DNA of 64,000 nt from Azolla caroliniana (Eukaryota; Plantae; Polypodiophyta). The notes under the pieces are model-generated. The model was not told the origin of the DNA. It saw only the letters and a program-made list of their open reading frames with translations, and ran no database searches. The DNA is taken from the NCBI GenBank assembly GCA_043228905.1, contig JBHGNT010000017.1:8556001-8620000 (forward strand), written 5' to 3'. Positions 8,067 to 60,740 of the stretch are shown here, in pieces (the first letter of the stretch is position 1; every line of letters starts with the position of its first letter). The translations under genes were made by a program, and so were the position numbers.

Positions 8067-8138
8067 TGCGCTTGCCGAGCGTTGAACTCGGGTCTATTGC
8101 TTGGAAGGCGATTATCCTAACCGTTGGACTACAAGCGC
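8067..8138 (-). pseudogene. tRNA-Gly(TCC) copy with a T-loop substitution
   Basis: ccgagcgttgaac instead of ccgagagttgaac; otherwise matches type A. Confidence 0.6.
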
Positions 8139-8727
8139 AATTTGAACCTATTTAAATTAAATTTCCTCAGAAAGAAATAGTATACAATATAAAATTATTG
8201 TTGAGTAATTGCATATCAATGTGAGTTCTTAACCTTTACCAAGTCTTACCTGAGCAAACGAATAGTGAGCCTTACTTTCTTTTGGCATACAAGCGAAACA
8301 AGTCTACAAAAACAGCTTGTTTAAGCTACATTGTTCCCGTGTTCTTACAACCTCGTTATGAAACTCGTCTAACAACGTCATACTCTGGGATTGAATCGTA
8401 TAGATTTTTATTGTCTAATTGAAGTACTCTTCTAAAGCACATAGCGTGCGCTTACGGAATGTCGAAGCCTGGTCAATTGCTTTCCAAAAAAATATCCTAA
8501 CTGTAGGGGTATAGGTGCACATATATCACATATGAATCTGAGCCCTTAATCTTTACTATTTTTTATCTGAGTGAGCAAAAGGTGACCGTAACGTTCATAT
8601 AAGATAGAAACGAAACTAGTTTAGAGTAACGACTGTTTGACGAAAGATTTATAGGAATGCAATTTGTTGGCGAATTTTTACCCTGTGACTTTGTGAAAGG
8701 GAATTGTAAAGTGTTCACTTTTCCATC

Positions 8728-9254
8728 TGTTAAGCCTTGGAATAACAAGACAACCAGTCACGAATAAGAACGCACCAACAAGGACGTAGTACGAAGAGGA
8801 AACGGCAAGAGGAAAGGAAAGCAAAGAGACGGTCAAGTGTGAAAGGCCCATACCCTAAACGTGAAAGCTATATAACGATCTCCTATTGATTAGAGCTAGA
8901 GCTTCCTCTCCTTCTTCTTGTAACCTTTGAGCTTAAGAGAGATTAGTGAAGTGTTTAGTTAGAGAACACTAATCTCTCTCCTTGTTGGTGGTAGACCTCT
9001 TAGCAAAGAGGGTTAATAATAGACATACTCTTCTTTTTTATTGTCTATACCTATTAATCTATTGTCTATGAGAGAGAGCTTGAGAGAGTGAGAGAGATAT
9101 TGTGCTCGATCATTTGCTAATCGTTAAGTGAGTGTGAGGCTCGGAGGTATCCAACAAACATCTCCGCCCGATTCGCCATCAAGAGGGTATACGCCGGTCC
9201 GAATCCCGCCACGACATCGAGGAGCTTATTCCATCGATACATAGATCCTTAACA
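8728..9254 (+). repeat. 5' LTR of the Athila-like element
   Basis: TGTTAAG...CTTAACA inverted termini; TATA-like ctatataa at ~8868; followed by the PBS. Confidence 0.88.
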
Positions 9255-9260: not shown

Positions 9261-9278
9261 TGGCGTCGTTGCCAGGGA
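9261..9278 (+). promoter_or_regulatory. Primer binding site, tRNA-Asp type
   Basis: TGGCGTCGTTGCCAGGGA resembles the Athila PBS TGGCGCCGTTGCCGGGGA. Confidence 0.8.
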
Positions 9279-9969: not shown

Positions 9970-12363
9970 ATGGCCGGATCCTCATGGACAGAGATGTTCA
10001 AAACCCGACCCGCACGCCCGAAGGAGTCCACGCAAACCAACCAAACCCACGATGCCATCCCACCTAACCCAACTTAGTACCACAGAGGGTGGCTAACTCC
10101 AGGGATACTACCAAACATGAACCTCCCATCGAGCCCAGGAACTAAAGCACTTCTCAACACACCCCCACTAAAGGAGAGCCCAATGGCAGACCCACTCAGT
10201 GTAGAACGACATATACGAGACGCAACACAAGAGTTATGGGTGATAGAACAGGAAATCAACCTATGGACAATACAGCTTGCGAAAGGAGGACAACCGGAAA
10301 GCACCACTCGAGATATCGAAGCCGCTTTGGCAGAAAGGAAGGATAGATTCGCACGAGTGCAACAAAAACTTCACCTCCTAGAAACATCGTCGCACATGCA
10401 CCGCCGAAGTCAGGAGCACAACCCCGTACCATGTTCGAGCACAACGGGCGATAGCCCGAATGAAGCCCACGCACAACGACACCCGACACCACCACGCATG
10501 GGCACAATCCCTACACCTGACCAAGCTACCCCTACACCCCCAAATGCCGAACTCGCACTAGCGCTACAATACATCCAAACTCTCGTAGCATTGATGGAAA
10601 AAGAGCGAGCACCCACAGACCATCCAAGAAACCTCACAAATGACAGTGGGAAGAGTGCTTCCATTTCTAAACTAGTACCCCGTTTCCTCAGTTTCGGCGA
10701 TGCCTATGACCATGTCAAGAGGTTCAAACAGATTTGTCGCGCTTATGAACCCCTCACAGAGATCACCAAGGTAGCCACGTTTGGACTTACACTTGATGAC
10801 CAAGCCGGAATCTGGTTTCGAAACTTGAATGAAGACATCGCCGCTGATTTCGAGTATGTCATCGAGGATTTCTTGATAAACTTCGCTCGCAAAGGGAATA
10901 AATGGAACCCAATTGAACAACTTTTCGCCCTTAAGCAAGAAGCGAACGAAACGGTCAAAGACTACATACGTCGCACGAAAAGCCTACATCATCATTGTAG
11001 TCCGAGCGACAAGATGTCGGATGACAAGTTGATGAGCCGTTTCATTAATGGGTTGTTCGATCCGACACTCCAAAATTTCCTGATTGCTAGGATGTGTCGA
11101 TCATTTGCTGAAGCCTGCACGATAGTGATGACCTTTGAAGATTCGATGAGTGGGTTACAAATACCCACTCACGCACCCACGAACAACCATGAGAAATCCT
11201 CCGACTCCACCCCTGCTCTACCCACACCACCACGAACACCCCGTATAGAAAAACCCCAAGCATACGCCCAACGAGAAAATGTAAGGTGCACGGTATGTCA
11301 CAGACACCACACGGGACATGAGTGTCCCCTCCTTCATCAACGACGACCGCAATACTGTAAGTGGTGCAAAGCTTTCGTGATGCAAACGCAAGAGAACTGC
11401 TGGCAAGCCCCCACTGGAAGGTGCGGCCAAACGCCAATGGTGGAACACCCACGCTCACCTCCACCACTTAGCCGCCCACCACTACCAGCATTACTCCCTC
11501 AACAACCCCCACTACCGCGCATTGGCGCCCGCCTCACCGAACTGGAGTATACCACAGATAACCAAACCCAAGTCGGGGCGAGTACCCCCGAATATGAAGA
11601 CTCGTACTAGGAGTATGGCATTGAGGAAGAGGTGTTGTCCCATTTCGTGGATTTTGAAGGCGACCAAATATCAGTGTACGTCTTGAGAGGGGAACAACGT
11701 GGACCCCTTACAAGATACCGCAACAACAATGGTCTAAGGAGGTTAGAATTGAAATGCTTCAACTGCCAAGGCCCACATATGGTTAGTGAGTGCCCAACCA
11801 AACATGAATACTACAACCGGATGGCCCAACGACCACGACACCTCCCACTCGACACGCCCCCGCAACCACTGGCGCAAGGTCTCACCCAACAGTCGCAAGA
11901 CCTTATCGAATGGTTCCAAAGAGAAGCATCATGCCCAAGGTGCGGTAAACAACACCTAGTACCTGATTGCCCAGAAAAGAAGCAAAGGGTCGGCACAAAC
12001 TTGTTATCCATTGTACCATCCGCGATCGGTGCCAATGTCATCACACGAGCCCAATGAGTAGCGCAAAATTTAAAATACCAAGAGCAAGGTCTCCCCGTGA
12101 CCGCGCGTAAGAGACGCAAATCTAGAAAGAATAATTCCACGCAGACCTCAAAACAAGATCAAGAACCGGAGGGAGACACAGAAACATTACCTGTCAATCC
12201 GAATCAAGAACTACCGGCACCCCTAGCAGCATACCCAAACCCAATAGCTAAGAAACAAAAGGTAGAAGAATACATCAAGCTCATACAGCATGAACAGTTT
12301 GAAAAATCACTTAGCCTCCCCAGCTTAAACTTCGACCAACTAGAAGACCATTCCTACGTATAA
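9970..12363 (+). pseudogene. gag: gag of the Athila-like element, with in-frame stops and several zinc knuckles
   Basis: One frame from ATG 9970 through ORFs 10117, 11632 and 12097; gag motif LKQEANETVKDYIRR; CFNCQGPHMVSEC and CPRCGKQHLVPDC. Confidence 0.8.
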
Positions 12364-13190
12364 GCCGTCTGGTAATGGATTTCGGGAACGATATAATCTA
12401 TATGCGTAAGGACAACAAAACATTCCGCATCAAAGCATACATGCAAAAAGTGCATGAACAAGAAGGCATCCCTCTCGTAGACGATTGGTCAGAAACCATT
12501 GAGTTCGAGACCAACCTCCTAGTGTGCAACCCCACAAAGACAGTTCAATTCTTGACCAGAGGCCAACACTTTCCTCAAAGCCTCACCACTTCCAAAGAGG
12601 AGAACTCACGTGAGAGAGACGACCAATCCGTCGCTTCCGAGACGTCAGAGATGAATTGGGTGCACGCTCTCACCACAACTGACGCAATGTACCCTATAGG
12701 TACAAAGTGTTGTGAAGAGGACGGAGAAACAATCTTGTACTTCAAGGTCACCACCCTGGGACCCCGGCGAAAAGAAGTAGACGTAAAGGACAAAGAACTG
12801 GTACAACGAGTCACACGTACAGTTGACGTCACGACCACTCAGAAGGCTATGACGGAAGCGGACTTCCCAGAGCATTTCAAACTCTATGAACAAGGGAGTA
12901 GTGCAGTGTCTTGTAAGAGACCAAAACACAAACCCCAAAGCCTAGGAGAAGTCTATGATGGACCAGCAAGGGTGAAAGAAATCAACCTTGGGAAAGGGAC
13001 AGACTCTAAATTGGTGTTCATAGCCGCAGATCTCCAGCCCGATGAGGAGGCGTCCTTGATCACCCTCCTCACGGAATTTAGCGATGTGTTTGCATGGTCG
13101 TATGTCGACATGAAGGGAGTCCTAGCTGAGGTCGTCACCCATAGTATCTCCATGCGAGCCGACGCCCATCCAATCCGTCAAAGGCCACGT

Positions 13191-13820
13191 TGTCGAGGTA
13201 TTCCTCGCGGATGCGTGGAATGAGGCGGAACCTCGGGGGTCCTGTACCAAAGAGCAAGAGAGGAAGGAGAAGAGACCCTCTACGTGCGAGCGTAGATCCA
13301 CAGGGACACGGCCCTTCGACGCAAAGACGCAAGCGGGACAGCGACACAGAAAGACACGAATGTATGTATGTATTAACAAAGACAAACAACAAGAACACGA
13401 AGACAACAAAACACGAAGTCGGTTACAACCGAACAGGCCGGCGAACAGATGCCGATACCTGCTCGTAAACGCACAGAGAGGAAGGAGTAGGTTGGAGGTG
13501 TTGCCGGAAGCACTCGGGCATTCCTCAGAGCAGCGCGAGCCTCCCGAAACCTGCACAGAAGGAAGCTATGGCGTTTGCAAACCAGAGAGAGAGAGAGAAG
13601 CCTTCGCGCGCAAACCGACAGCACTTCGTCCTCGACTCTCCGCGATCCCCCCCCCCTTTCTCGTCTCCCTCCTTTTATAGGCAAGGAAGGAGCCGTTTCC
13701 CCTTTTCTTCCTACCCACTAAATCTACCTGCCTAGGATCTTCTATGGACAACATTCGAGAAGAGCCGGTTCCTACGCTCCTGTGCACCGATTCCACTTGT
13801 GGACGGTTTTATTCACGACA
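13191..13820 (-). repeat. 3' LTR of the nested gypsy
   Basis: Near-identical to 19245-19875; adjacent PPT ggtgggggcgga on the minus strand. Confidence 0.95.
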
Positions 13821-13893
13821 TCCGCCCCCACCTAACCGCGCATCCACCGGCATGCGCCAAATTGAGTTGGGACGGAGAAAACCGGTCCAGCCT

Positions 13894-16800
13894 TCATTCC
13901 CCGCCCGTCGGTTCTTCCTCGGTTTCGGATCGTTCGTCGTCGCGGTCCAGGCCAACCGGATCCGGCTCGTCGTCGTGACGCTTCTTGAACGTTTTGATCC
14001 GCTTCCCAGCTACCGGTATCGCCATTCTCGTGCCGTCGAGCTCCCCCAGATGGTACATCCCGTTGTCGTTGGCGCTTTGTACCACGTAAGGCCCGAACCA
14101 CCTTCTTGCGAATTTTCGTGTCGCTCGGTGCTGGTTGTCAAGGCTGCTGTCGTGACTAGCACCCAGTCGCCTTCCTCGATCTTCTTCGGTCGGAGCCGGT
14201 GCATTCGGTCGAACCGGGCCCTCATCCTTGCTTCCCGAAGCTTTTCCGCAGCCTGCTCCACGTCCTCCGGTCTTCGCTCGAGCTGTCGTATACGCGCCGC
14301 CAGCAGTTCCTCCCGGCTCATCTCGTCTCTCCAGTCCACGGTTGCCCACGAGGAGATCGTACGTTCCATCGGCATGACCGGCTTCTGCCCAAACATGAGT
14401 TCTGCCGGCATGAATCCGGTTACCGAACTGTGCGTAGTTTGGTCCGCCCACAACGCGTAAGGCAACAGCCGCGGCCAGTTCCCGACTTGACCTCCGCATG
14501 CCCGAACTAACGCCTTGACGATCGGTCCGTGTCCGCGCTCCACCTTTCCATTCGCCTCCGGATTGTACGCAGTGGTAAGCGAGAGCTTGACTCCTAGCCG
14601 GTCGAACAGCTCCTCGGCCTCTTCGGCGTCCAACTCCCCGCGATCAACCACTATCTTCCCGACGCACCCGTACCGGCATATCACGTCCTCAATCAGGAAC
14701 CGACATACGGCCACGGTCGTTTTGTTTTGAAGGGCTCGGCCTTCTACCTGGTTTGTCAGATCTTCCCGAGCCAGGACCAGGTACCGCATCTGTCCTACTC
14801 CCATCGGCATCGTCACCAGATCTACCATCCATTTGAAGTGGATGGTCGGCGGGTACGTAGGGTGAAGCTCGTCCCGATGTCGGACTACGGAGTGCATCTG
14901 ACAGCTCTCGCAAGTTGTCACGAACAGATGCACGTCCCGGTACAGTCCCGGCCACCAGTACTTCCCCTTTATCTTCTCGAACGTGGCCCACGTTCCACGG
15001 TGTCCAGCCCAAGGGTTGTCGTGGTAGGCCGTCAGCAGCTCCTCCTATTCTTCCTTCATCGCCACCACCCGGAGCGGGACGTCGTTCCTCTTCTTCAGGT
15101 GCTTCCATAAGTATCCGTCCCGGAGAAAGAATCGGTAAGCTTTCTTCCGGACCCGGTTGGCCTCGTCCTTCATCCATGATGCATCCGGCGTCATTGTCCT
15201 CAAAAATCCACCGATCTGTAGCCACTCGTCGTCGTACTTGCTCTCGTCGAAGCCGTTAAGTGCCGGAGTGCTCGCCCCGTCGGTCGTCACGTACGCCGCC
15301 TCGAAGAAGTCCACGCCGATTTCTTCGTCCTCCGAAACCATGCCGCCCTCGTCATCAAACCTCGCCCTCGAAAGCATGTCGGCCATGGCGTTGTCTTTTC
15401 CGGAAATGTGTCGTATTTCCGGGTCCAGGGACTTGATGTACGTTATCCACCTGAGCATCACCAGGTCCGGTGTCGCGCATCCGGAAACTATGCCGAGAAT
15501 TGGAAGCAATCCGTCTCGATAATCACTTCTGTCCCGATCAGGTAGTCTTTGTCGGCCTTTACTGCCGAAACGATACCCCAGAGTTCGCGTTTAACCTGGG
15601 CGTACCCTCGCTGTCGCTCACTGAGGACCTTCACGCCGAATCGGATCGGGAACCGAATGCCGTCCTCGTCTTCTTGGTTGACGACCCATCCGATCCCGGT
15701 CGAACTCGTATCTACCGTTATGTATACCGGGGTACCCTTCCCGTAGACAGCCTTCCGGAGCGCCGGTGCTGTCGCAAGAGCTTCCTTCAGCTTCCAGACC
15801 GACTCCGTGTGCTCGTCTCGCCATTCGAATTTTCGCCCTTTCTTCAGCAACCCATATAGCGGCTCCGCAACGTGGGCGTAATGCGCATGCCCCCAGGAAC
15901 CTCCGAACTTCCGTAACCGAGCTACAGTCGGTCTTCATCGCGGAGATGGCTTCTACCTTTGCCGGAGACGGCTTCCGGCCATATGGCCCACATAGGTGTC
16001 CGACTACCAGGATTTCCGATTGCCCGAAGGCCGATTTCTCCCCGGAGAAGGTGAGCCTCGCATCCTCTAGCCTTTGTAGCACCTTCTCGCAGTCATCGAT
16101 GTGTTTCGCCACGAATCGCCGTCATCCGTCTGGCCCGACTGTCTCGTCCTTCTCCTCCACCGGGCACCCCTTGATCGGGATGTCGTCTAGAAACGGCATG
16201 GTGATGTTCGGGATGCAATCCCTCAGTACCTTGTTCATTGCATTCACCATGTGGGCTACCGAGTTGGTCCCTCCTTGTGGCAGGGTACACATTCGCACTA
16301 GGCCGAGGGGGGTTCGCATCGTCGTAATGTCTCTGCTCTCCACGGCTAGCTGGAACTGGTTGTACCCTGAGTACAGATCACCGACCGAGTAAATCGACCT
16401 TCCGGCGAAGGCCTCTGCGAACTCGTCTATGGTCGGTCCGATTCCTGCGTTCCGAATGGTCACTCTGTTGACCGGCTGCAGGTCTTGAATGAAGCGCAAT
16501 GTTCCGTTTTTCTTCGGTACGGTAAACCATTGGTTCGAGTATGGGGCACTCGACGGTTCAAGAATGCCCATATCTACTTTCTGCCTCAATAGCTCCATCA
16601 ACTTCTGGATGTGAGCTCTCGGTACCGGAATCGGCTTGAGATTCCACGGCACATGCGGTACCGTGAATATCACCATCGGCTCCACGATCGTCGGGTCTAC
16701 GCACCCGATCTCTTCCGGTGAGAATGCGAAGGCTTTCCCGTGCCTTCCGAGCATCCTCCGAAACCGGTCTTCCTCCACTGGCAGTAGGAACCCGGCCCCA

Positions 16801-17300
16801 CCGATTTTGAGCTCCCGGAGCGTCCCGTCAGTGAAGGTGTGTCCTATGCAGGCCGGATCTCGTAAACTGGGGTCCGACGCAACCCCTTTGATCCGGGACT
16901 CGCTGCCCTCCGGTAAGGGTGCCGCGACTGGCCTTACCTTCCGGTCCACAGTCTTGTACTTTGTGCTAACTCGGGCCGTCCGATCCGACCCGAGCCCCCG
17001 ACTGAAGTTCGCATTAAGGTATCGTCCGGTCTTCATTAAGGTCTTCTCCGGCTACCTCCCCCAGCATTCCCAAGGTGTCGTCGAAGGAGACCGCCTCCAC
17101 GGCTCCGCTGATTTCCTCGTCCGGGCCGAGAACTCCGCACGCTCGAAGTCGCACTTCCGCCCTTGTCTTTTCTCGGCCAACGATGCCGATTATCATACAC
17201 CCTCCGTTGTTGGAGAAGCAGAATTTCCTACTTATCGTACAGTCGTGGGGTCCTTTCCGAGTGTCCGGGCTGTCTCGGCCCCACGCCTTGGCAGCCCTCT
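13894..17300 (-). pseudogene. pol: pol ORF2 (RT, RNase H, integrase) of the nested gypsy, frameshifted
   Basis: VPKKNGTLRFIQDLQ; LPQG; FLDD; ITVDTSSTGIG; YAQVKRELWG; YNPEANGKVERGH; WFGPY. Confidence 0.9.
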
Positions 17301-19228
17301 CTAAAAATCCTCCCGGTTCTCGCCACCGAGGGATTCGCGGTTTCTCTCGTGGTTCGGCCGCACCGTCAGAAATTGGACCGAATGGCGCCCGTCCTGGCTT
17401 TTGACCCTCGCGTAGGCCGACCCGTTGTCCAGCACTTTGGTCTCCATCCGCGCCGCCGTGATGTATGGTTCACCTAATATGACCGGGTGCGAGGACGTCT
17501 CCTGTACGAAGAAGTGCTGGTCAATCTCGACGTCGCCGATCTTGACTCGCACGTTCGGGCAGGCCCCATGCAGTTCCTCGGTGGCGCGCGTCGCCGCCCG
17601 TATCTTCCACCCGTGCTTGGTGTTGATCGGCCACTTCCCCTTCTTATAGAAGTCCATGGACATCAGGTTTATTTCTGAACCGTGGTCCACCAATGCCACC
17701 ACCGGTTCCTGAACATCTCCAATCTTTACCGGGGTCTCCGTGGTCGCTGGGCCCAGTGTGGCCTCGAATAGTGGCTCTCCGCCCACTCATCTGCCAGCGC
17801 CGAGTCGTCGATGTGCGTCGTCCGCACCTCTACCGGTCTTTCCGGTTCCGTCTCCGTCGACAGCCTCTTCTGTTTCACCAAGTCTACAATGGAGTCGTGG
17901 AACTCCTTCTTGGCGATCCCTAGCACCTCCCGCAATGACAGCTCCACTTTGCTGTCGAGGATCCGTTCTTCTAGGACCTTTCGTAGGTCTGTAGTCCTTT
18001 CTATTTCCGTCCCCAATCGTTATCCGCCCTTCCTGGGGTTATCTTGCGAGCTGGACCCGCCGGCATCGTTCCGTCGTTGCCCGAATCGGGTCTCGTACCG
18101 TTGTGAGGGCCCGGCCGCTCCGGCTTTCCCCACTCGTTTGTCTTCTACCAGAGCCTCGTAGATCCAGCAGGCGGCTTCTACGAAGCCCGTCTTCTCCTCG
18201 ACCGGATCGCTCCACCCGGTTATTTCCCGGACCCGTCTCTCAGCGTGGTCCGTTTCATCTTTCCTTAGTCGTGCGCCAGCAAGACCTCCCAGCATTGCCG
18301 ACCAGAATCCGTCTTTGCCCTCTGTTCGGGCCTCGCTGCCCCCGACCCGAATTCCGGCCCACGCCGAGTAGTGGATGGCCTCTACGTGTCGGGCCGCTGC
18401 CTCTTCCATCAGTCTCTTCATACCTCCTCGCCTGTCGTTTCGGTTCAGGGCCCTCCTGCTGTCGCCGGCGTGCACCCGGCCTTCCCACAGGTACACCACC
18501 CGGTTCCTCAACGCCTCTGCGAAATCGCCGCAGTCCTTCCGAATGTGGCCGACCTCGTCGCACCACATGCACTTGTTCCCCGCTGCCGGTCGTCGGTCAC
18601 GAACCGGTTCGCCGCCTTCCCTTCGAGTCTGGGCGATCTGGAGATCCTTTATCGCCCGCGTCAACTCCTCTAGCGCTGCTCCTCCGACTTGTTCCCGGTC
18701 CCGCTCGTCCACCGACTTGACGAACAATAGGACTCGGCTCGTATCCAGAACGGTTCGGTCAAGCGCCGAAAGGCGCGCAAAGCGTTCTTCAAACTCCCGG
18801 AGGAGTGCCGACGTGTTTCTTCCCTTGCCGGGGGACTCCACCCATTCCATGAAGTCCCGTTTCAAAAGCCGGAGCGCGTCGTCCAGCCCGTATTTTTCTA
18901 GGAGTCGGCCTTCGAACTCCTCCCAGGTACGGCTCTCCGCCCGCACTTCGAGCACCTCCGCATGGATGCTCGGCATCGCCACTCGAGGAAACCCGGCAAG
19001 ACGCCTCTCTTCCGGAATGTCCCACATTAGCATTTCTGCCCCGTAGGACGCCAAATACTTCGTGGCATCCTTTCCGCTGAACCGGCCGATCGTACCGACG
19101 ACCGCCTCAATGGCTCTGTCGAGGGCGCTGGTGCCCTCGCGTGCACTCAATATCCGATCCACGGCCGAAGCCATGGCCTCTGCAAGATCCGACCCCTTCA
19201 TCTTCTGCTCTTCTGCCGCCTCCTTCAC
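17301..19228 (-). pseudogene. gag: gag-protease ORF1 of the nested gypsy
   Basis: CMWCDEVGHIRKDC knuckle; protease ALVDHGSEINLM...VILGEPY; ends REDF-TAG. Confidence 0.85.
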
Positions 19229-19241
19229 GTCGGGTTCACCA
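19224..19241 (-). promoter_or_regulatory. Primer binding site complementary to the tRNA-Trp 3' end
   Basis: Plus strand TTCACGTCGGGTTCACCA matches, from memory, the 3' end of plant tRNA-Trp plus CCA; 3 nt from the LTR. Confidence 0.85.
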
Positions 19242-19244
19242 AGA

Positions 19245-19875
19245 TGTCGAGGTATTCCTCACGGATGCGTGGAATGAGGCGGAACCTCGGGGGTCCTGTA
19301 CCAAAGAGCAAGAGAGGAAGGAGAAGAGACCCTCTACGTGCGAGCGTAGATCCACAGGGACACGGCCCTTCGACGCAAAGACGCAAGCAGGACAGCGACA
19401 CAGAAAGACACGAATGTATGTATGTATTAACAAAGACAAACAACAAGAACACGAAGACAACAAAACACGAAGTCGGTTACAACCGAACAGGCCGGCGAAC
19501 AGATGCCGATACCTGCTCGTAAACGCACAGAGAGGAAGGAGTAGGTTGGAGGTGCTGCCGGAAGCACTCGGGCATTCCTCAGAGCAGCGCGAGCCTCCCG
19601 AAACCTGCACAGAAGGAAGCTATGGCGTTTGCAAACCAGAGAGAGAGAGAGAAGCCTTCGCGCGCAAACCGACAGCACTTCGTCCTCGACTCTCCGCGAT
19701 CCCCCCCCCCCTTTCTTGTCTCCCTCCTTTTATAGGCAAGGAAGGAGTCGTTTCCCCTTTTCTTCCTACCCACTAAATCTACCTGCCTAGGATCTTCTAT
19801 GGACAACATTCGAGAAGAGCCGGTTCCTACGCTCCTGTGCACCGATTCCGCTTGTGGACGGTTTTCTTCACGACA
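19245..19875 (-). repeat. 5' LTR of the nested gypsy
   Basis: Near-identical to 13191-13820. Confidence 0.95.
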
Positions 19876-22601
19876 ACGTCCAATGAACCCTAGCTACGCC
19901 CAACAAGTGAAAGCCAAAATCAACAAAATGTTGGCTGCAAGCATTATCTACCCAATCGAACGAACTACTTGGGTCACCCCGATTGTAGTCGTCCCAAAGA
20001 AAAATGGCCAGATCCGCATATGTGTCGACTACCGCCAAGTTAACGAAGCCACTATCAAGGACAATTACCCGATACCCTACATCGAACATCTACTCGAAAG
20101 AACCGCGGGAGCAGAAGCGTATAGCTTCATCAACGGGTTCCCCGGGTACAACCAAATCTCGGTGGTCCCTGAGGATCAACAAAAGACAGCTTTCGCCACA
20201 GAATTTGGTACGTTCACGTATAAACAGATGCCTTTCGAACTCACGAGTGCCATGAGCACCTACCAAAGAGTGGCGGACCATATCTTTGCAACAAGGTTAC
20301 GACAAGGGGTGGAGTCTTATGTTGACGACTTATGTTGCAATTCGAAATGGCATGACCACTTGGGGCTACTCCGTTTGACGTTTGAAAAATGTTGAACCTA
20401 TCAACTCTCTCTCAACCCGCTCAAGTGTGAGTTCTGGGTCAAGCACGGAATAATATTAGGACACGTCGTGTCCCGCCACGGGATCTCGACCGATGAGGCA
20501 AAAGTAAAACTCATCCTCGACAGGCCACCCCCCACGAACGAGAAACAACTACAAGGGTTCATGGGATACGTGGGCTACTATAGACGCTTCATTAAGATGT
20601 TCGAGGACAAGGCTAGACCACTCTACTTCCTATTAAAGCAGTTTGTGTGGACAAAAGAATGCACACACTCCTTCAAGCTCTTGAAAGAGTGCCTAACTAA
20701 GGCCCCCATCCTCTGACCTCCCGATTGGACCAAAGAATTCCACGTTCACACCGACGCTTCCGCCTTCGCGATTGGTGCAGTGCTAGCTCAACCCGGTGAA
20801 GGGGCACTCGACCTTCCGGTCACCTTCACTAGTCGCCAACTAAATGCCACGGAACGAAATTACTCCACGACGGAATGGGAGGCTTTGGCCATGGTTTACA
20901 GCGTAAAGAAATTCCGCCACAACCTTTTGGCATCCCGATTCTCGTTTTTTGTAGATCATCAGGCCCTACTCTACTTAGTAAACAAAACTCACGCCACCGA
21001 ACGCATCTCACGATGGATCATAACAATACTCGAGTTCGACTTCAAGGTAGTAGTGAGAAAAGGGAAAGACCATGTACTCGCCGATCATTTCTCCCAGATT
21101 CCCAACGGAGAAGAAGCCATTGGGGTTGATTATTCGCGATCGACACCGTACCAGCATGGGCATCAGACATAGTTCGCATCCTAACTGAAGGAGCGTCCTT
21201 CCTAAAACAACTACCACGGACACACGCGCGTGTGTTGCTAAAGAAATGGGCCCCTTCACGATGCTCCGAGGCAATTTGTACCGTCGGGGTAACGACGATC
21301 TACTTTGGAGGTGTATAACAGACCATGACGTCGTCACCACCCTCGAACAAGCTCATTGCGGGAGTGGAAGTGGTCATTTCAATCACGAGACCACGTCGCG
21401 CAAGATCCTCCAGTCCGGTCTATGGTGGCCAACACTCTTCAAAGACGCATATGCGTATGTATGCCATTGTGACGAGTGCCAATGTTTCAAACACCCGCTA
21501 AAAGCGGATTTTAATACTTTAAACTCGGTGGTGGCATGGCAACCATTCGAGAAATGGGGTATCGACTTTATCGGCCCAATCAGCCCAGCTTCCAACCTCA
21601 ACCGATACATAATAACCGCCACCGACTATGCCACCAAGTGGGTTGAAGCTAAAGCTTGTGTTAACGCCGATGCGCGTAGTACTGTCAAATTCCTATATGA
21701 AAATGTCATTGTACGGTTTGGATGTCCGCTTGAAATCATTAGTGACCGAGGCTCGCATTTCCTGAACGAGGTGGCAGCACATTTACTAGGCGAGTTTATG
21801 GTGACACACCGCAAAAGTTCTCCTTATTACCCTCGATGCAATGGACAAGCAGAAAGCACGAATAAGGTGTCATGTGCAGTGCTCACAAAGATAGTCGCCG
21901 CCTCACGATCTGATTGGAGCACCAAACTCCAAGCAGCATGATGGGCTTTCCGTACTTCCTACAAGGTCGCAACTCGCCACACACCATTCAAACTAGTGTA
22001 TGGGCAAGAGGCAGTATTACCCATCGAGTTCCTTGTCCCCAGCCTCGGGATCGCCGCACAAGAACGATGGGACGGGGACCCCCTCCTGTCACGCCTAGAG
22101 AACCTACAACGACTGACAGAAACCCGCCTTCTCGCATTCCAAGCACTCTTGGCAGAGAAAGCCAATAGAAAGGTGTGGCACGACAATAAAGTCAAGAACA
22201 AAGACCTCGCTGAAGGCGACATGGCCCTCAGATTCTCCTTTTAACGACACAAGAAGAAGCTTAAGTTACGGGGTGAAGGCCCGTATGTGGTTTTGGAGAT
22301 TACCAAGACAGGAGCATGTCGCCTACGCATGATCGAAGGTTTTGAAATCCCTGGGTTCATTAATGGGAGCAAGCTCAAACGTTACTATGGACCCCTCACA
22401 CTCGAGGCTCTACTCACGGCTCGGCAACGAGAGGTAGAGGCAAAACTTAAAGCCTCCGAAGGCCGAATGGCCCGGCTCGAAACCGACCTGCACAATATGC
22501 AAGAGAAATTGAAGCAACAGGGACACGCCCATCCAGTAGCCATGGCTCAGGCGGCCAACTCTAATGACAGAACAATACAACTATGATGCTGCGTCGACGA
22601 C

Positions 22602-22900
22602 ATGCCTTTGACGACGGTAATCGACACAGGAGCATCGCTAACCCTTTTCTGCTTCGAAACATGGAGACGTCTAGGCTGCCCAGACCTCGAAGTGTGCAAC
22701 GACAACTTCCGTGGCTTCGATGCGTCCTCGTCGTGCTGCTTGGGAACTTTCGGGTGTAGCATCAAGACAAAATACAACGCGCACTCAATCCAAGTTCGGG
22801 TACTCCCACCCGGAGTGATGTACACACAATGCCTCCTCAGTTTAGATTGGTGTCGCATAAGCGAATGTCTCCTATCACCTAGCAAACACATCGTCTCTTT
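22602..22900 (+). pseudogene. Second retropepsin (aspartic protease) domain downstream of integrase
   Basis: VIDTGASLT...FRGFD...CLLSLDW; same frame as the integrase C-terminus, separated by one TGA. Confidence 0.75.
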
Positions 22901-23012
22901 CCAATCAGGAGATGGACTGAAGTCCGAGGACCTCGTCGCAACGACACTCGAATCACATCCCGCTTTCCTCGCTGATCCCCAAAGCGTGGAGTTACCCAAA
23001 CAAGCAACACAC

Positions 23013-23560
23013 CAACACCCACGGGTCATCCATGGCCAACGCGACACTAACATTAGAACACGGACACCCAAACCACGAGAATGGGTGAACATCCACGTAG
23101 TGTTCACTGAAGGCCCACGCTGCGAAGAACGTGCGGTGTGGCGAGTCAGAAAAATACTCACAACCGCACAAGGTTGGCACAATGGCGCCACTAGCTTTTG
23201 GGTTCCGAAACGAAACCGACTCCCCGCTCGCGATCGAAACACCCCTGCATGGGACATCGATGAACCCCAAGGCGCGGAGTCGCCCAACCAAACCGAATGC
23301 CAACACCCACTGGTCACCCAAGACTAGCGCGACGCTAACGTCAGAACACAGACACCCAAACCACGGGAATGGGTGAATGTTCACGTTGTTTTTGCGAACG
23401 GACAACGTTGTGGAGAATCTGCCATTTGGCGAGTCAAAAAGACACTCACAACCGCACAAGGTTGGCACAAAGGTGCCACTAGCTTCTGGGTCCCAAAACG
23501 AAGCCAACTCCCCAGGCACGATCATACCACGCCTGTAGGGGACACCTGAAAATCATACAC
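23013..23560 (+). repeat. ~288-bp tandem duplication at the end of the pol frame
   Basis: caacacccac...gaatgggtgaa...caaccgcacaaggttggcacaa at ~23013 and ~23301. Confidence 0.8.
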
Positions 23561-25020: not shown

Positions 25021-25150
25021 AACTCTTAGTTGTTGAGTTACTACGTAGTTAGGACTCCACGTCCCGCTCCGTCACAGGAAATCTATTGAAACTACCCGAA
25101 CTTGTTGATTCGTCACCACATTTAACTATACTAATAATTTTCCTCGCAAG

Positions 25151-28007
25151 TTGCAAATGATGACGTCTCCCCAATTCATCAAACTCCTCCACGCATACTA
25201 CCCCGACGTAGGGTGCGGTTCCTTAGTCATTCCAGCGGTGTTCAACAATACCCGATGTATTTACCGGGTCCCCACGGCCGCCACGCAGCTCAAGTACCTC
25301 GAACTCGACGTGTTCGCCACCCTCTCACGACTTGGCCTCAAGTTCTTCCTTGGGATCGGGCCGTGGGGCGTCCTACCCAAACTGGTCAACCGTTTCCTCA
25401 TCGGGTACAACCCCGATACGGGCCACGTCGATATGTAGCCTTTCGCAGACTCCCCCCTCGTTGCATTCTAGTTCACCGCGGCCGACGTTTGTGCTACGCT
25501 GCATTTACCACTCGAGGGCGCCCCCTTCTGCACCATGAGGACCCCCGGGGTTGTCCCTGGCATCATCCCTGCCGCCTACGCCGAATATTCTGGACGTGAT
25601 GGTTGGCGTTACACCGAAATCCCTCTCCATCTCCACGCCTGTTGTAGCGCAATTGCCCAAATCGGCGACACTGCATCTACCGATGCCACCGCTCCTATCA
25701 CCGGCGAGTACCTCAAGTGGGCACATGATCCGCAACCGGTCCAGTGGGTTCACGAGCCTGTCTGCCGGGTCCGAGAATGGCACACACGGCCCAAATCGAC
25801 TGTCAATTTCGCGTGGTTCCTCACCCGCTACTTGTGCGCAAAGTTCAGCATCGGACCCCCCGCCCCTCCCTTCATACGCTGCCAAGAACGCTTCCGCAAG
25901 ATCGTTGTTCCAGGCCAACTCGAGCGCCTTCGCCTCCCCAAATGCGACTTTTTATGACAGGTACACCAAGGCGAACAGGCACGGCCACCGGTGCACAAAC
26001 AACCCCCGATCACCCACGTGTCAGCCGAAGCTAACCTCGACACACCTGAGGATATCACAAATCGTGTCAAGGAATTCCAGACACACAAGTTCACCCCCAC
26101 CGAAATCCAAGCCTTGTCCACCACCTTCCACTATGTGTCACATCAGAACACAATCACGACTCCGCGTTCCCGCAGCTGCACCACTAAGTCAATCTTGCGC
26201 GACCAACGGAACCCACCAACCCCGCCTCAACCCACCTCGCCAACCCCTCTACCCCACGAATCCTCTCCCCCCGCCCCGGCCACAACTACCCCGCCTTTCT
26301 CGTCCACCACCACCGACGACACCCCGCAACCCCGACCCCATAAACTCGCCCGCCACACCGCTCCCGACACTGAAACCCTCGACCGGCCCTCGCCCGCAAC
26401 CCCGGCAGTTCCCCTCCAACCCACCATCGCCCCCGCCCAGATGGACACCCCGCCACCGCCACCGCCACCCCCACTCCCCACTCCCGACCTCTGTGCCCTG
26501 CTCGACCTCACTCACTGCAGTTACTACTCACCCTACCCTCTCCCTCGCCGTCCCCCCCAAACCCTTAACCGACATGGTGACCGACCTCCTCAAGATGACT
26601 GCCGTCGTGAACCGTCGCCTACTTCAAGTTCATGCACAGGCCCAACAGACCGCCATCGACCAACACGAGACCTCTACACGGAACAAGATCTTGGCCGCCG
26701 AGGTACGGAGCGCCCTCCATACCAATGTGTGCCAAGCGGCCGCCCACGACCTCCTCAAGCAAGAACTCCTGACAACGCAAACCCGACACCAACAACTCGC
26801 TGACGAATTCCAACAAGCTCGAACAACCTCGCACCACGACCAGGAACGCGCAACGCAAACACATGTTGAACTTTCGCCCGAGTACGTCCGCCTCACCACC
26901 CAACACTAACTGACCGAGGCCCGCCTCGCAGCCGAGACGGCTGATCTCTCCGAACGATCTGAGGCCCTGGTCGCCGCCATGGCCACCACTCACCAACTCA
27001 TGAGCGAGATCACCACCCTCAAGGCTGAACGAGACGCCATGGTCCACCAAGTTGAAGTCGCCAATGAACGGAACCGATGTCTCCTCATCAAACACCGCCG
27101 CCAATGCGCCGACCTCGAAAAGGACATCCTCCAACTCCACACGTCCAAAGCCGCCCTTGAACACACCCTCACCCCCGACATGACGGACCCCTCCACCGTT
27201 CAGACCCCTCTCCTTCCCCCAACTGGCTCTCCGATTATGATCCATGCACTCTCTGTGTACGTGACCTCGACCTCCCTGCTCTCCGAACTTTTCACTGCAC
27301 CACGCACACCACGCACCCTCCTCATCCAAGCAACGTGCGTCCTTTGGTCGTTAGCCGCCACGCATCGCGTATTCTTTGACGACACCACACCCCCAGACCG
27401 GCAGACCTTCATCCGAGTACTCCCCGAAGACAACCACGCCCTTGCCCTCTTCATGTTGTACCAGGAAGCCACCGAAGAACCTGCTCCCCCATCCAACGAC
27501 CTCTTCCCCCAACACCTCCCCATTTTGTTCCTCGAAGGTATGGCCTACCTTCACACCACCCTCACCCCCGACTTAGACATCTCCGACCTGATCTATTTCA
27601 CCTACCCTTCTGATGTCACGATGCAAGTCACCGAAGACCAGCTAGCTCACCTCTTCGCAACACTGGTGCACTTACACCAAATCACCGACACCCTCACCTG
27701 CACCCTGTTGGAAAACACAACGACCTCCGTACCCCCTTTCGGTTTCCTTTGGCTAATACGCGCTTGGCAAACCGCCTAGGATGTCGGGGTTCGTACTCAC
27801 ATATTCAGCATCGAATATGGCACGTTCAATTGGCCCACCGACCTCGAGGCCGACGACATACCACAATTAGCCCTATACCTCGACATCTCTCGCGAGTATC
27901 AACTCATGACGTTCGATGAGGCTCGTGCTCATGCCCTCCTACCCCCGCACCCCCCTTCTCCTCCCCCGGCGATTGACCTAGAGTGGGACACCGACTCACT
28001 TGATTAA
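25151..28007 (+). pseudogene. Extra ~950-codon ORF in the env-like position: Athila ORF/plant transposon protein-like N-terminus, Pro-rich linker, coiled coil
   Basis: ORFs 25151, 25535, 25991 share one frame; a shift near 26510 leads to the frame of 26979, which reads past TAG 27779 to TAA 28007; motif LVNRF...FTAADVCATLHLPLEG...VNFAWFL. Confidence 0.6.
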
Positions 28008-28009
28008 CA

Positions 28010-31000
28010 CCATCTTAAGTAGTGGCGATTATCCTAACTGTTGGACTACAAGTGGGATGTGAACCTACTTCTATGGGAATTTTATCCCAAACAAAAAATA
28101 TACAAGATAAAATTATTATTGAGTACTTGCATATCAATGTGAGTCCTTAACCTTTACCAATTGTTCACTGAGTGAACGAATAGTGAGCTTTACTTTCTTC
28201 TAGCATACAAATGAACTACTTTGTTCTCGTGTTCTTACAATCTCGTTATGAAACATGTCCAACAACGTCATATTCTCGAATTGAATCGTATAGATTTTGA
28301 TTGTCCAATTGAAGTACTGCTCTAAAGCACATAGCGTGCGCTTGCGGAATGTCGAAACCTAGTCTATTTCTTTCCAGAAAAAATATCCTAATTGTAGGCC
28401 TACAGGTGGACAGATATCTCATATGAACCCGAGCCCTTAATCTTTACCATTTTTAATGTGAGTGAGGAAAAGGTGAACAAAAGGTGACCCTAACGTCCTT
28501 ATAAGATAGAAACGAAACTAGTTTAGAGATACGATTGTTTGACGTAAGATTTATCGGAATGCAATTTGTTGGAGAAGTTTTACCCTCCGCTAATGAAAGT
28601 CTCGACCAACATGACTTTGTCAAAGGGAATTGTAAAGTTTTCACTTTTCCACCTTCGGTAGTGGTGTAAATGACATAGTGTGCGCTTGTTGAGAGTTGAA
28701 CTTGGGTCTATTGCTTGGAAGGCATTTATCCTAACCGTTGGACTACAAGCGCAATGTGAACCTACTTCCAAGGGAATTTTATCCCAAACAAAAAATATAC
28801 AAGTTGCATATCAATGTGAGTCCTTAACCTTTACCAATTATTACTTGAGCTAGCAAATAGTGAGCCTTACTTTCTTCTAACAAGTCCACAAGAACGGCTT
28901 GTTTAGGCTAATTTGTTCCCGTGTTCTTACAATCTAGTTATGAAACTCGTCCAACAACGTCATATTCTCGAATAAAATTAAATAGATTTTCTTTATCCAA
29001 TTGAAGTACTGCTTTCAAGCACATAGCGTGTGCTTGCGAAATGTTGAAATGTGGTCTATTGCTTCCAAGAAAAATATCCTAATTGTAGGTCTAGCTCATA
29101 TCAGCCTGAGTCCTTAATCCTTACCATTTTTTATGTGAGCGAGCAAAAGGTGCCCCTAACATTCTTATAAGATAGAAACGAGGCTAGTTTAGAGAAATGA
29201 TTGTTTGACGAAAGATTTATAGGAATTCAATTTGTTGGAGAGTTTTTACACTCCACTAATGAAACTCTCGAACAACATGACTTTGTCAAAGGGAATTGTA
29301 AAGTTTTCACTTTTCTATCTTAGTAGTGGTGTAGAAAACATGGGGTGTGCTTGCTGAGAGTTGAACTCGGGTTTATTGCTGGGAAGGCGATTATCCTAAC
29401 CGTTTGACTACATGCGCAATTTTAACCTCTTCAAAAAGAATTTTATCACAAAGAAACAATATACAAGATAAAATTATTGTTGAGTAGTTGCATATCAATG
29501 TGACTCCTTAACCTTTACCAATTGTTACCTCAGCGACCGAATAGTGAGCCTTACTTTCTTTTAGCATACGAATGAAAAAGTCCACAAAACAACTTGTTTG
29601 AACTACTTTGTTCCCGTGTTCTTACAATCTCGTTATGTAACTCGTCCAACAACGTCATATTCTCGAATTGAATCGTATAGATTTTGATTGTCCAATTGAA
29701 GTACTGCTCTAAAGCACATAGCGTGCATTTGCGGAATGTCGAAGCCTGGTCTATTGCTTTCCAGAAGAATATCCTAACGTTCTTATAAGATAGAAATGAA
29801 ACTAATTTAGAGAAACGATTGTTTGACGAAAGATTTATAGGAATGCAATTTGTTGGAGAATTTTACCCTCCACTAATAAAAGTCTCGAACAACATGACTT
29901 TGTCAAATGGAATTGTAAAGTTTTCACTTTCCATCTTAAGTAGTGGTGATTATCCTAACTGTTTGAGTACAAGCTCAATGTGAACCTACTTCCAAGGGAA
30001 TTTTATCTCAAACAAAAAATATACAAGATAAAATTATTATTGAGTACTTGCATATCTATGTGACTCCTTAACCTTTACCAATTATTACCTGAGCGAACGA
30101 ATAGTGAGCCATACTTTCTTCTAGCATACAATTGAAACAAGTCCACAAAACTAGCTTGTTTGAACTACTTTGTTCCCGTGTTCTTACAATCTCGTTATGA
30201 AACGTGTTCTTACAATCCCGTGTTCTTACAACGTCATATTCTCGAATTGAATCGTATAGATTTTGATTCTCCAATTGAAGTACTGCTCTAAAGCACATAG
30301 CGTGTGTTTGCGGAATGTCGAAGCCTGGTTTATTGCTTTCCAAAAAAATATCCCAACTGTAGGGCTACACGTGCACAGATATCTCATATGAACCGGAGTC
30401 CTTAATCTTTACCATTTTTTATGTGAGTGAGTAAAAGGTGAGCAAAAGGTGACCCTAACGTTCTTATAAAATAGAAACGAAACTAGTTGAGCGATACGAC
30501 TATTTGACGTAATTTTCATAGGAATGCAATTTGTTGGAGAATTTTTACCCTCCGCTAATGACAGTCTCGACCAATGTGACTTTGTCAAAGGGATTGTAAA
30601 GTTTTCACTTTAACATTGTTGGTAGTGGTGTAAATAACATGGTGTGCGCTTGCCGAGAGTTGAACTCGGGTCTATTGCTTGGAAGGCGATTATCCTAACT
30701 GTTGGACTACAAGCACAATGTGAACCTACTTCCAAGGGAATTTTATCCCAGACAAAAAATATACAAGATAAAATTATTATTGAGTAGTTGCATATCAATG
30801 TGAGTTCTTAAGCTTTACCAATTATTACTTGAGCTAACAATTAGTGAGCCTTACTTTCTTCTAACAAGTCCAAAAGAACGGCTTGTTTGAGCTAATTTGT
30901 TCCCGTGTTCTTATAATCTAGTTATGAAACTCGTCCAGGAACATCATATTCTCGAATAAAATCGAATAGATTTTCTTTATCCAATTGAAGTACTGCACTA

Positions 31001-34000
31001 AAGCACATAGCGTACGCTTGCGGAATGTTGAAGCGTGGTTTATTGGTTTCAAGAAAAATATCCTAATTGTAGGGCTGCAAGCGCATATATATCTCATATC
31101 AACCTGAGTCCTTAATCATTACCATTTTTTATGTGAGCGAGCAAAAGGTGACCCTAACATTCTTATAAGATAGAAAAGACGCTAGTTTAGAGAAACGATT
31201 GTTTGACGAAAGATTTATAGGAATTCCATTATTTGACGAAAGATTTATAGAGAAACGATGCTCGAACAACCTGACTTTGTCAAAGGGAATTGTAAGGTTT
31301 TCGTGTTTCCATCTTAAGTAGTGTTGTAAATAACATGGTGTGCGCTTGTCGAGAGTTGAACTCGGCTCTATTGCTTCGATGGTGATTATTCTAACCGTTG
31401 GACTATAAGCGCCATTTGAACCTACTTCGAACGGAATTTTGTCACAAAGAAATAGTATAAAAGATAAAATTATTGTTAAGTAGTTGCATCTCAATTTGAG
31501 TCCTTAACCTTTACCAATTGTTACCGAAGCAAACGAATAGTGAATCTTACTTTCCTCTAGCATAGAAATGAAACAAGTTCACAAAAACAGCTTGTTTGAG
31601 CTAAATATCATATTAATTCAATTTGTCCTCGTGTTCTTACAATCTAGTTATTCAAGTCATCCTGCAATATCATATTCTTGAATCGAATCGAATAGGTTTT
31701 GTTTATCCAACTGAAGTACCGCTCTAAAGCACATAGCGTGCGCTTGCGCATTGTTGAAATCTGGTCTATTGCTTTCAAGAAAAATATCCTAACTGTAGGG
31801 CTACAAGCGCACATATATCTCATATCAACCTAAGTCCTTAATCATTACCATTTTTTATGTTAGCGAGCAAAAGATGACCCTAACAGTCTTATTAGACAAA
31901 AGCGAAGCTAGTTTAGAGAAACGATTGTTTGACGAAAGATTTATAGGAGTTCCATTGTTTGACAAAAGATTTATATAGAAATGATGCTCGAACAACCTGA
32001 CTTTGTCAAAGGGAATTGTAAGGTTTTCGTGTTTCCATCCTAAGTAGTGTTGTAAATAACATGGTGTGCGCTTGCCGAGAGTTGAACTCGGGCCTTTTGC
32101 TTCGAAGGTGATTATCCTAACCGTTGGACTACAAGCGCAATTTGAATGTACTTCGAACGGAATTTTGTCACAAAGAAATAGTATAAAAGATAAAATTATT
32201 GTTGAGTAGTTGCATCTCAATTTGAGTCCTTAACGTTTACCAATTGTTACCTAAGTGAATGAATAGTGAGCCTTACTTTCTTCTAGCATACAAATGAAAC
32301 AAGTTCACAAAAACAGCTTGTTTGAGCAAAATATCATATTAATTCAATTTGTCCCCATTTTCTTACAATCTAGTTATTCAAGTCATCCAGCAATGTCATA
32401 TTCTCGAATCGAATCGAATAGGTTTTGTTTATCCAATTGAAGTACCGCTCTAAAACACATAGCGTGCGCTTGCGCAATGTTGAAATGTGGTCTATTCCTT
32501 TCAAGAAAAATATCCTAATTGTAGGGCTACAAGCGCACATATATCTCATATCAGCCTAAGTCCTTAATCATTACCATTTTTTATGTGAGGGAGCCAAAGG
32601 TGACCCTAACAATCTTATTAGATAGAAACAAAGCTAGTTTAGAGAAACGAAAGATTAATAGGAATTCAATTTGTTGGAGAGTTTTTACACTCCGCTAATG
32701 AAACTCTCGAACATCCTGACTTTGTCAAAGGGAATTGTAAGGTTTTTGTGTTTCCATCTTAAGTAGTGGTGTAAAAAAGATGGTGTGTGCTTATTGAGAG
32801 TTGAACTCGGGTTTATTGCTTGGAAGACGATTATCCTAACCGTTGGACTACAAGCACAATTTGAACCTCTTCTAATAGAATTTTACCAATTATTACTGGA
32901 GCTAACAAATAGTGAGCCTTACTTTCTTCTAAGAAGTCCACAAGAACAACTTGTTTGAGCTAATTTGTTCCTGTGTTCTTACAATCCAATTATGAAACTC
33001 ATCCAACAACGTCATATTCTCGAATAAAATCAAATAGATTTTCTTTATCCCATTGAAGTACTACTCTAAAGCACATAGCGTACCCTTGCGTAATGTTGAA
33101 ACGTGGTCTATTGCTTTCAAGAGAATTATCCTAATTTTAGGGCTACAAGCGCACATATATCTCATATTAGCCTAAGTCCTTAATCATTACCATTTTTAAT
33201 GTGAGCGAGCAAGAGGTGACCCTAACATTCTTATAAGATAGAAACGAAGCTAGTTTAGAGAAACGATTGTTTGACGAAAGATTTATAGGAATTCAATTTG
33301 TTGGAGAGTTTTTACAATCCGCTAATGAAACTCTTGAACAACCTGACTTTGTTAAAGGGAATTGTAAGGTTTTCGGTTTTCCATCTTAAGTAGTGGTGTA
33401 AATAACATGGTGTGCGCTTGCCGAGAGTTGAACTCGGGTCTATTGCTTGGATGGTGATTATCCTAACCGTTTGACTACATGCGCAATTTGAACATACTTG
33501 CAAGGGTATTTTATCAAAAGCAAACAATATACAAGATAAAATTATTGTTGAGTAGTTGCATATCAATGTGATTCGTTATCCTTTACCAATTGTTACCTGA
33601 GCGAACGAATAGTGAGCTTTACTTTCTTTTAGTATACAAATGAAACAAGTCCACAAAAATAGCTTGTTTGAGCTAAACATCAGGTTAATTCCATTTGTTC
33701 CCGTACGTATAATCTAGTTATGAAACTCGTCCAACAATGTCATATTCTCGAATCGAATCGAATAGATCTCTTTTTTCCAATTAAAGTATTGCTCTAAAGC
33801 ACATCTCGTATGCTTGCGGAATGTTGGAATGTGGTCTATTGCTTCGAAGAAAAATATCCTAATTGTAGGGCTATAGGCGCATATATATCTCATATCAACT
33901 TGAGTCTTTAATCTTTATCATTTTTTATTTGACCGAGCAAAAGGTGACCCTAACGTTCTTATAAGATAGAAACGACACTAGTTTAGAGAAACGATTTTTG

Positions 34001-35171
34001 ATGAAAGATCTATAGGAATTCAATTTGTTGGAGAGTTTTTACAATCCGCTAATGAAAGCCTTGAATAACAATGTTTTCGGTTTTCCATCTTAAGTAGTGG
34101 TGTAAATAACATGTTGTGCACTTGCCGAGAGTTGAACTCGAGTATCTTACTTGGAAGGCATTTATCCTAACCGTTGAACTACAAGCACAATGTGAACCTA
34201 TTCCAAGGGAATTTTATCCCAAACAAAAAATATCCAAGATAAAATTATTATTCCCGTGTTCTTACAATCTAGTTATGAAACTCGTCCAACAACGTCCTAT
34301 TCTCAAATAAAATCGAATAGATTTTCTTTATCCAATTGAAGTACTGCTCTAAAGCACATAGCGTACGGTTACGGAATGTTGTAACTTGGTCTATTGCTTT
34401 CAAGAAAAATATCCTAATTGTAGGGCTACAGGCGCACACATATCTCATATCAACCTGAGTCCTTAATCTTTACCATATTTATGTGAGCGAGCAAATGGTG
34501 ACCATAACATTCTTATAAGATAAAAACAAAACTAATTTAGAGAAACCGTTTTTTGACCAAATATTTATAGGAATTCAATTTGTTGGAGAGTTTTTAGACT
34601 CTCCATGCTAATGAAACTCATTGAACAACGCGGCATTGTCGAAGGGAATTGAATATATTTCTCTTTTCGATCGTAAGTAGTGGTTGAAATAACATGGTGT
34701 GCGCTTGCCGAGAGTTGAACTCGGGTCTATTCCTTAGAAGGCAATTTTCCTAACTGTTGGATTACAAGCGCAATTTGAACCTACTTCCAATGAAATTTTC
34801 TCAGAAACAAAAAAATACAAGATAAAATTATTATTGAGTAGTTGCATATCAATGTGAGTCCTTAACCTTCACCAATTGTTACCTGAGCGGACGAATAGTG
34901 AGCCTTACTTTCTTCTACCATACAAATGAAATAAGTCCACAAAAACAACTTGTTTGAGCTAAACATCATATTAATTCAATTTGTTTCCGTGTTGTGATAA
35001 TCTAGTTATGAAACTCGTCCAGCAATGTTATATTCTCGAATCGAATCGAATAAATTTTTTTTATCCAATCGAAGTACTGCTCTAAAGCACATAGCGTGCG
35101 CTTGCGGAATGTTGAAACGTGGTCTATTGCTTTCAAGAAAAATATCCTAATTGTAGAGCTATAGGCGCACA
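28010..35171 (-). repeat. tRNA-Gly(TCC)-derived tandem array, right part
   Basis: Type A copies at ~28681, 29347, 30645, 31341, 32067, 32786, 33413, 34116, 34700, partials at ~28020 and ~29945; type B copies between them. Confidence 0.92.

Positions 35172-60695: not shown

Positions 60696-60696
<1 letters not shown>

Positions 60697-60737
<41 letters not shown>
60697..60737. repeat. (CAT)n microsatellite
   Basis: ~13 CAT units. Confidence 0.9.

Positions 60738-60740
<3 letters not shown>

Follow-up and report, generated by a model that had tools for sequence, protein, structure and literature searches.

A single protease, placed ahead of the reverse transcriptase (RT) or, in copia elements, ahead of the integrase (INT), is a defining trait of LTR retrotransposons, and to our knowledge all Ty3/gypsy elements other than those described here manage with one. 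The 64,000-nucleotide stretch of the Azolla caroliniana genome analyzed here (contig JBHGNT010000017.1, positions 8,556,001 to 8,620,000; the window) raises the question of whether some carry a second protease behind the integrase and, if so, where it came from and what it might do. A preliminary description made from the letters of the window had read the frame behind the integrase GPY module as passing one TGA into a second retropepsin, here PR2, and had proposed an ancestral order PR-RT-RH-INT-PR from which the canonical protease, PR1, was deleted in this copy except for its tail.

In the window, a forward frame from 21189 leads from the integrase into the GPY module (22287) and a coiled-coil-like stretch, and then through a TGA (22584 to 22586) into a domain with the motifs DTGAS and LLSLDW (Table 1). 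The codon at this TGA is a sense codon in 25 of 29 sister loci, a stop in 2, and without a match in 2, in keeping with the reading of a single frame. The protease tail at the canonical position was also real: it comprises the last ~30 residues of PR1 and scores E = 1.4e-17 against the family PR1 profile. Among 20 upstream stretches of sister copies, 14 have ~670 to 720 bp extra at 12339 to 12347, which contain the rest of PR1; of the remainder, one has a deletion of its own and five lack that part. A 6.7-kb nested element separates PR1 from RT, the RT-RH region has further stops and a frame break, two extra stops (21939 and 22242) lie between the integrase core and GPY, and the host element ends prematurely at ~28008. 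The window copy is dead, given the stops in RT, RH, and INT, the nested insertion, the loss of ~670 bp of PR1, the broken 3′ extra-ORF region, and the absence of the 3′ LTR.

Table 1. Features of the PR2-bearing host element and of the element nested in it, in window coordinates.
Feature	Position	Strand	Basis
5′ LTR of host element (TG...CA)	8728..9254	+	Matching LTR pairs in sister copies
Primer-binding site, tRNA-Asp(GTC) type	9261..9278	+	Window and sister copies
Gag region (Cys/His-knuckle-like motifs) plus spacer, stop-broken	10078..12338	+	Retrotrans_gag E = 1.6e-12 (Pfam), translation
PR1 (canonical protease), C-terminal remnant	12342..12434	+	~670 bp missing just upstream
Unrelated nested Ty3/gypsy element, inserted just before RT	13191..19875	-	LTRs 98.9% identical, 4-bp TSD
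Reverse transcriptase and RNase H, stop-broken	19880..21110	+	RVT_1, RT_RNaseH (Pfam)
Integrase zinc finger and core	21342..22091	+	Integrase_H2C2, rve (Pfam)
Integrase GPY/SH3-like module	22194..22410	+	SH3_Tf2-1 E = 0.019 (Pfam)
Coiled-coil-like linker, kept across clade	22413..22547	+	Selection ratio 0.05 to 0.10; found in distant families
Second retropepsin PR2, DTG motif	22587..22920	+	Profiles, fold, selection
Two in-frame 288-bp (96-codon) repeats, each with Trp/Lys-rich motif	22969..23544	+	Translation
3′ extra ORF region, coiled coil, broken	25100..28008	+	Long forward ORFs in sisters

Several other features of the window were recorded. The TSD of the nested gypsy element is ACGT, which agrees with the reported NCGN preference of Phygy; the protease motif of this element is DHG. 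The host element is embedded in a ~700-bp tandem array (6500 to 8700 and 27900 to 35300) whose units carry tRNA-Gly(TCC) genes, six of them called; tandem tRNA-Asp arrays occur elsewhere in the genome (L179 to L180). The window also holds a copia element (41330 to 46973) with a 1080-aa open frame and LTRs 98% identical, a PPR gene (60375 to 62645), and a 52-bp tandem repeat (2100 to 3300).

We asked whether the domain behind the integrase is a retropepsin. The Pfam family gag-asp_proteas matched the window PR2 weakly (E = 0.041 for the 246-aa frame and 0.0081 for 118 aa) and was found at E ≤ 0.05 in 30 of 38 family members, the best at 1.3e-8. A profile that drew on 10 PR2 domains, none of them from the window family, matched 22587 to 22904 with E = 2.7e-17, and the top ESM Atlas match of a sister-copy PR2 was a cluster of retroviral aspartyl proteases (0.96). 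DTG is present in the window PR2 and in every subfamily, and the position of the hydrophobic-hydrophobic-Gly motif is occupied by LLS in the window and by LLG in most sisters. Sequence searches of the PDB with the window PR2 gave no matches at E ≤ 10, while the family alignment returned DDI1 at E = 0.025 amid chance phospholipase matches.

In structure prediction with an alignment that included other proteases, the AlphaFold model of PR2 from sister copy L043 reached a pLDDT of 92.3; the fold from a family-only alignment, at 44.8, was unusable. The best Foldseek match of the PR2 model was the DDI1 retropepsin (E = 7.5e-9, TM 0.74 to 0.78), and retroviral proteases matched as well. Retropepsins act as dimers, and the PR2 homodimer model scored 0.66 against 0.00 for the best control, a pass that may stem from likeness to solved retropepsins; the mark applied was reached by 17 of 29 solved eukaryotic pairs and by none of 30 single chains. 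Across dimer runs, 87% or more of the contacts agreed and the pLDDT was 86 or higher; in these models the catalytic Asp residues of the two chains touch each other, as do the Thr residues. PR2 is predicted to adopt the retropepsin fold, to form a homodimer through Asp-Thr-Gly, and to be an active protease. In modeled fold and dimer mode it resembles the retropepsin domains of DDI1/DDI2 and ASPRV1, which are host genes 12 to 23% identical to PR2 in structural matches; we claim likeness, not descent. A second aspartic protease fused C-terminal to the integrase, as the preliminary description had it, was borne out by the reading of the frame, by the profile from other families, and by the predicted fold; the domain is present in sister copies, with matches to retropepsin profiles and structures.

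Such a layout could also be an artefact of nested insertion, of a tandem element, or of misassembly at the locus. The window is itself a nest of elements, and REXdb, in the portion of its account available to us, treated repeated domains as likely mispredictions and removed the elements that had them (PMC6317226). We found at least 150 scored matches to the PR2 family among 247 candidates in the A. caroliniana genome and examined 80 ten-kb stretches, of which 20 were mostly best matches, 20 the most divergent, and 40 intermediate. Of these 80 stretches, 53 have GPY at most 600 bp upstream of PR2 and 44 have PR1 upstream of it; all six domains are present in 20, in every one of them in the order PR1-RT-RH-INT-GPY-PR2. 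Sister LTR pairs (four measured, 568 to 582 bp) are 97.9 to 99.0% identical and five sister copies have 5-bp TSDs, from which we conclude that the PR1...PR2 layout was mobilized as a unit, and recently. The sister primer-binding site matches tRNA-Asp(GTC) genes of the host genome over a 16-mer, and the hallmarks of Ty3/gypsy elements (LTRs, PBS, PPT, and the order Gag-PR-RT-RH-INT) are present. Dozens of copies share a constant spacing, LTR pairs and TSDs delimit whole elements, and independent database records show the same layout, so that an artefact is extremely improbable. The 20 complete copies, together with the two-protease polyproteins described below, also uphold the proposed ancestral order, with PR1 deleted only in the window copy.

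Sister copies carry long forward 3′ extra ORFs, which matched no informative Pfam family and gave no ATHILA ORF-1 match. Two deletion derivatives that lack RT-RH-INT and keep both proteases were amplified too. In one, a nonautonomous Gag-PR1-PR2 element, the pre-RT linker runs directly, in frame, into PR2 (L049, L112, L118, L120, L122, L125, L127, and L088; also L123 and L124); the LTRs of L049 and L112 are 98.8 to 99.0% identical, L049 and L120 are without the 3′ extra ORF, and DTG is kept in 2 of 7 copies of this subfamily. The other reads Gag-PR1-GPY-coiled coil-PR2, with its domains in one frame among the cleaner copies (L097, L104, L109, L119, L121, L128, and L075). A search of the genome for further PR2-bearing families, with two distant PR2 proteins as queries, found spans of GPY plus protease only at places recognized as belonging to the known family, along with weak protease-only matches.

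We then sought the layout beyond this genome. A word-based homologue search with the GPY-PR2 region returned none, and a full HMMER search with a GPY-coiled coil-PR2 query, run against 1.84 billion representatives, then found 329 matches. Among 25 that we inspected, chosen mostly for spanning matches, 14, all distant, show a protease-type motif behind SH3 or a coiled coil; two of them are named proteins of Adiantum nelumboides. Uninterrupted polyproteins with both proteases, 2,454 to 3,189 aa overall, were found in three families: that of the window (P0301, P0302, and P0304; 2,454 to 2,553 aa), family B (P0312 and P0317; 3,185 to 3,189 aa; RT 57% identical to the window family), and a third (P0323; 3,139 aa; RT 62% identical). 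These full polyproteins are unnamed ENA records and possibly collapsed repeat assemblies. In family C, the PR1 motif is DGG and the PR2 motif is DTG. The two-protease layout is clade-wide, occurring in at least three distant families, and is not the trait of a single family.

In an integrase tree (FastTree), all PR2 carriers fall in one clade (support 0.97) whose other members are short-ending fragments only. In an RT tree of 78 sequences, picked from our own search matches and without labeled references, PR2 carriers and the Adiantum proteins included in that tree form one clade (support 0.99) adjoining seed-plant sequences. No PR2 follows GPY in 13 outgroup loci, some of which have little sequence there; the outgroup metagenome loci stop at GPY, and several have an ORF there that, from its motifs, we take to be RNase H-like. 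Judging from these tree neighbors, the PR2-bearing clade is likely one of plants, with ferns as the probable hosts. The seed-plant RT neighbors may be read as Athila-like, with Tat Z1 as the alternative for the clade. Pfam scans of the full polyproteins found no second RNase H family (no aRH), and the acidic catalytic residues are visible in the native RNase H.

Where did PR2 come from? PR1 and PR2 of the window family are ~25% identical. In a protease tree, the PR1s of three families cluster (support 88 to 94) apart from all PR2s; the PR2s of different families are 23 to 29% identical, and the tree leaves their monophyly unsettled. The window PR2 scored 51 bits against the profile of foreign PR2s versus 13 against the profile of its own PR1. 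Since PR1s cluster across families and the foreign profile scores higher, we rejected PR2 as a recent copy of the element's own PR1. These comparisons indicate that PR1 and PR2 have separate histories, and a single ancient gain of PR2 would be the simplest reading.

We measured selection as the ratio of subfamily-diagnostic to private changes, in comparisons that overlap (they share group A) and so are not independent. PR2 ratios were 0.18 (p = 3e-4), 0.22 (p = 0.002), 0.30 (p = 0.003), 0.38 (p = 0.06), and 0.61 (p = 0.32), while those of other regions were 0.05 to 0.15 for PR1, 0.01 to 0.10 for RT/RH/INT, 0.05 to 0.10 for the coiled coil, and 1.7 to 2.1 for the spacer after PR2. Ratios below 1 beside those of the spacer indicate that PR2 is translated and constrained, though less than the core domains. 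Net dN/dS was 0.26 to 0.53 for PR2 and 0.02 to 0.09 for PR1; since its within-group baseline is only 0.3 to 0.8 in most domains, we preferred the count of private versus diagnostic changes. Purifying selection acts on PR2 and on the coiled-coil linker; on PR2 it is several-fold weaker than on PR1. The Thr of DTG is encoded by ACA, ACC, and ACT across subfamilies. DTG is intact in 48 of 81 PR2 copies and in 26 of 42 PR1 copies, no more often in the one than in the other, from which we conclude that copy counts are dominated by decay.

Weak constraint might suggest that PR2 has been a tolerated passenger under relaxed selection since one old capture. Two variants of family B, with PR2 78% identical, PR1 96%, and spacers 67 to 86%, show a divergence of PR2 near that of spacer, and selection on PR2 was not significant in the comparisons A versus E+F and B versus C. 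However, it was significant in three comparisons, and an open frame, the fold motifs, and the triad have been kept across families whose RTs are ~40% different, so that we regard a mere passenger as quite improbable. Rather unlikely, in our estimation, is that PR2 has been kept as a dimerizing or scaffolding module, or as a regulator of PR1, with catalysis dispensable. The coiled coil is more constrained than PR2, and among 13 distant matches with a full triad, D[T/S]G occurs in 8 and another, noncanonical triad in 5; the decay of a redundant catalytic site has a precedent among Tat elements that carry two RNase H domains, according to the accessible part of their account (PMC10508981). Nevertheless, the six full-length polyproteins, which represent three families, all retain DTG in their PR2 despite the 23 to 29% identity between families.

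Our preferred explanation, to which we give about an even chance, is that PR2, by prediction an active dimeric aspartic protease, likely cleaves the precursor in its C-terminal part, in a clade of Athila-like Ty3/gypsy elements, probably of ferns, to which the dead window copy belongs. The single polyprotein of this clade has the order Gag-PR1-RT-RH-INT-GPY-coiled coil-PR2-tail. As polyproteins pack in the particle, the adjacent conserved coiled coil would help PR2 to dimerize, and PR2 would cut the far end of this very long precursor, freeing the integrase from its extension. Labor might be divided, with PR1 acting on Gag and Pol-core sites and PR2 on the integrase/tail end. On the coiled coil aiding dimerization and on PR2 releasing the integrase we are evenly divided; no substrate or cleavage site for PR2 was found.

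Alternatively, throughout a fern-wide Athila-like clade, the integrase may be armed with an active PR2 that cuts host proteins, such as silencing or chromatin factors, at or en route to the integration site. PR2 follows directly after GPY, where chromodomains sit, as stated in the part of the chromovirus account available to us (PMC2774666); its surface changes fast while the triad is kept; and its closest solved fold is that of DDI1, though this could simply mirror the set of structures solved so far. Given that PR2 has ratios below 1, with no region-wide excess of amino-acid change, we consider an attack on host proteins unlikely.

Returning to the layout itself, which known systems resemble it? 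The following comparisons draw on the accessible portions of the papers cited. Like Athila, the PR2 family has a tRNA-Asp PBS, a 5-bp TSD, a single Gag-Pol ORF, no aRH, and a forward 3′ extra ORF (PMC6317226), and the RT of the PR2 clade adjoins seed-plant relatives; unlike Athila, the window family has a second protease and a Trp/Lys-rich tail fused after the integrase. For Athila, Additional file 5 of Neumann et al. 2019 gives no extra polyprotein domain in the part available, Additional file 4 likewise names no protease among extra-ORF domains, and the main text makes no mention of ferns (PMC6317226). Tat elements with a post-integrase aRH, a sister lineage, also captured an extra enzyme, in one structure after the integrase, as seen too in outgroup loci here by our motif reading, but theirs is an RNase H in a separate ORF rather than an in-frame retropepsin; the available text of the Tat accounts describes no second protease (PMC10508981, PMC13468544). 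In lacking an aRH and having an intact RNase H, the PR2 family is like Tat Z1/Z2 (PMC10508981, PMC13468544), and unlike aRH-bearing Tat elements its polyproteins have no additional archaeal-type RNase H.

The nearest precedent for two proteases, as far as the text available goes, is wendovirus, an endogenous member of the Caulimoviridae whose two aspartic proteases differ from each other and are not the product of simple duplication (PMC9794742). Wendovirus is a pararetrovirus without integrase, and its proteases are encoded near each other upstream of RT, in two ORFs (PMC9794742), whereas in the PR2 clade they lie at both ends of Pol in one ORF. Chromoviruses, which belong to another RT clade, also fuse an extra module after the GPY motif, although theirs is a chromodomain where the PR2 clade has a coiled coil and a protease (PMC2774666), and bdelloid elements captured other enzymes after Pol (PMC5408684), both by the accessible parts of these reports. 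Our literature search, in which subscription papers were thinly covered, found no account of a protease after the integrase; the DARTS domain-order strings (PMC13468544) and the REXdb element table could also bear on novelty. The two-protease layout in this Athila-like lineage is real and clade-wide and, it seems, undescribed. An old and successful clade with a separately derived post-integrase protease adds an arrangement of domains that would escape classification tools. It also offers a natural setting in which to ask for what purpose a retroelement would need two proteases, whether to split processing, for regulation, or to attack host factors. The PR1/PR2 pair has parallels in Tat elements, with their dual RNase H, and in wendoviruses, with their two proteases.

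Several further observations concern related sequences. The Trp/Lys-rich motif of the window repeats (23064 to 23240 and 23352 to 23528) occurs as one copy after PR2 in distant families and is conserved in families B and C; the repeat gave no informative ESM Atlas match (0.75), and selection on it was not significant (ratios 0.26 to 0.86). P0123, labeled Enterobacter, has an integrase nearly identical to that of an Adiantum protein and is likely plant contamination. Two unnamed database proteins, P0198 and P0209, have two tandem retropepsin domains and group apart from the PR2 clade. In family B (P0312, P0317, and P0280), the integrase zinc-finger region is duplicated, giving two Integrase_H2C2 stretches.
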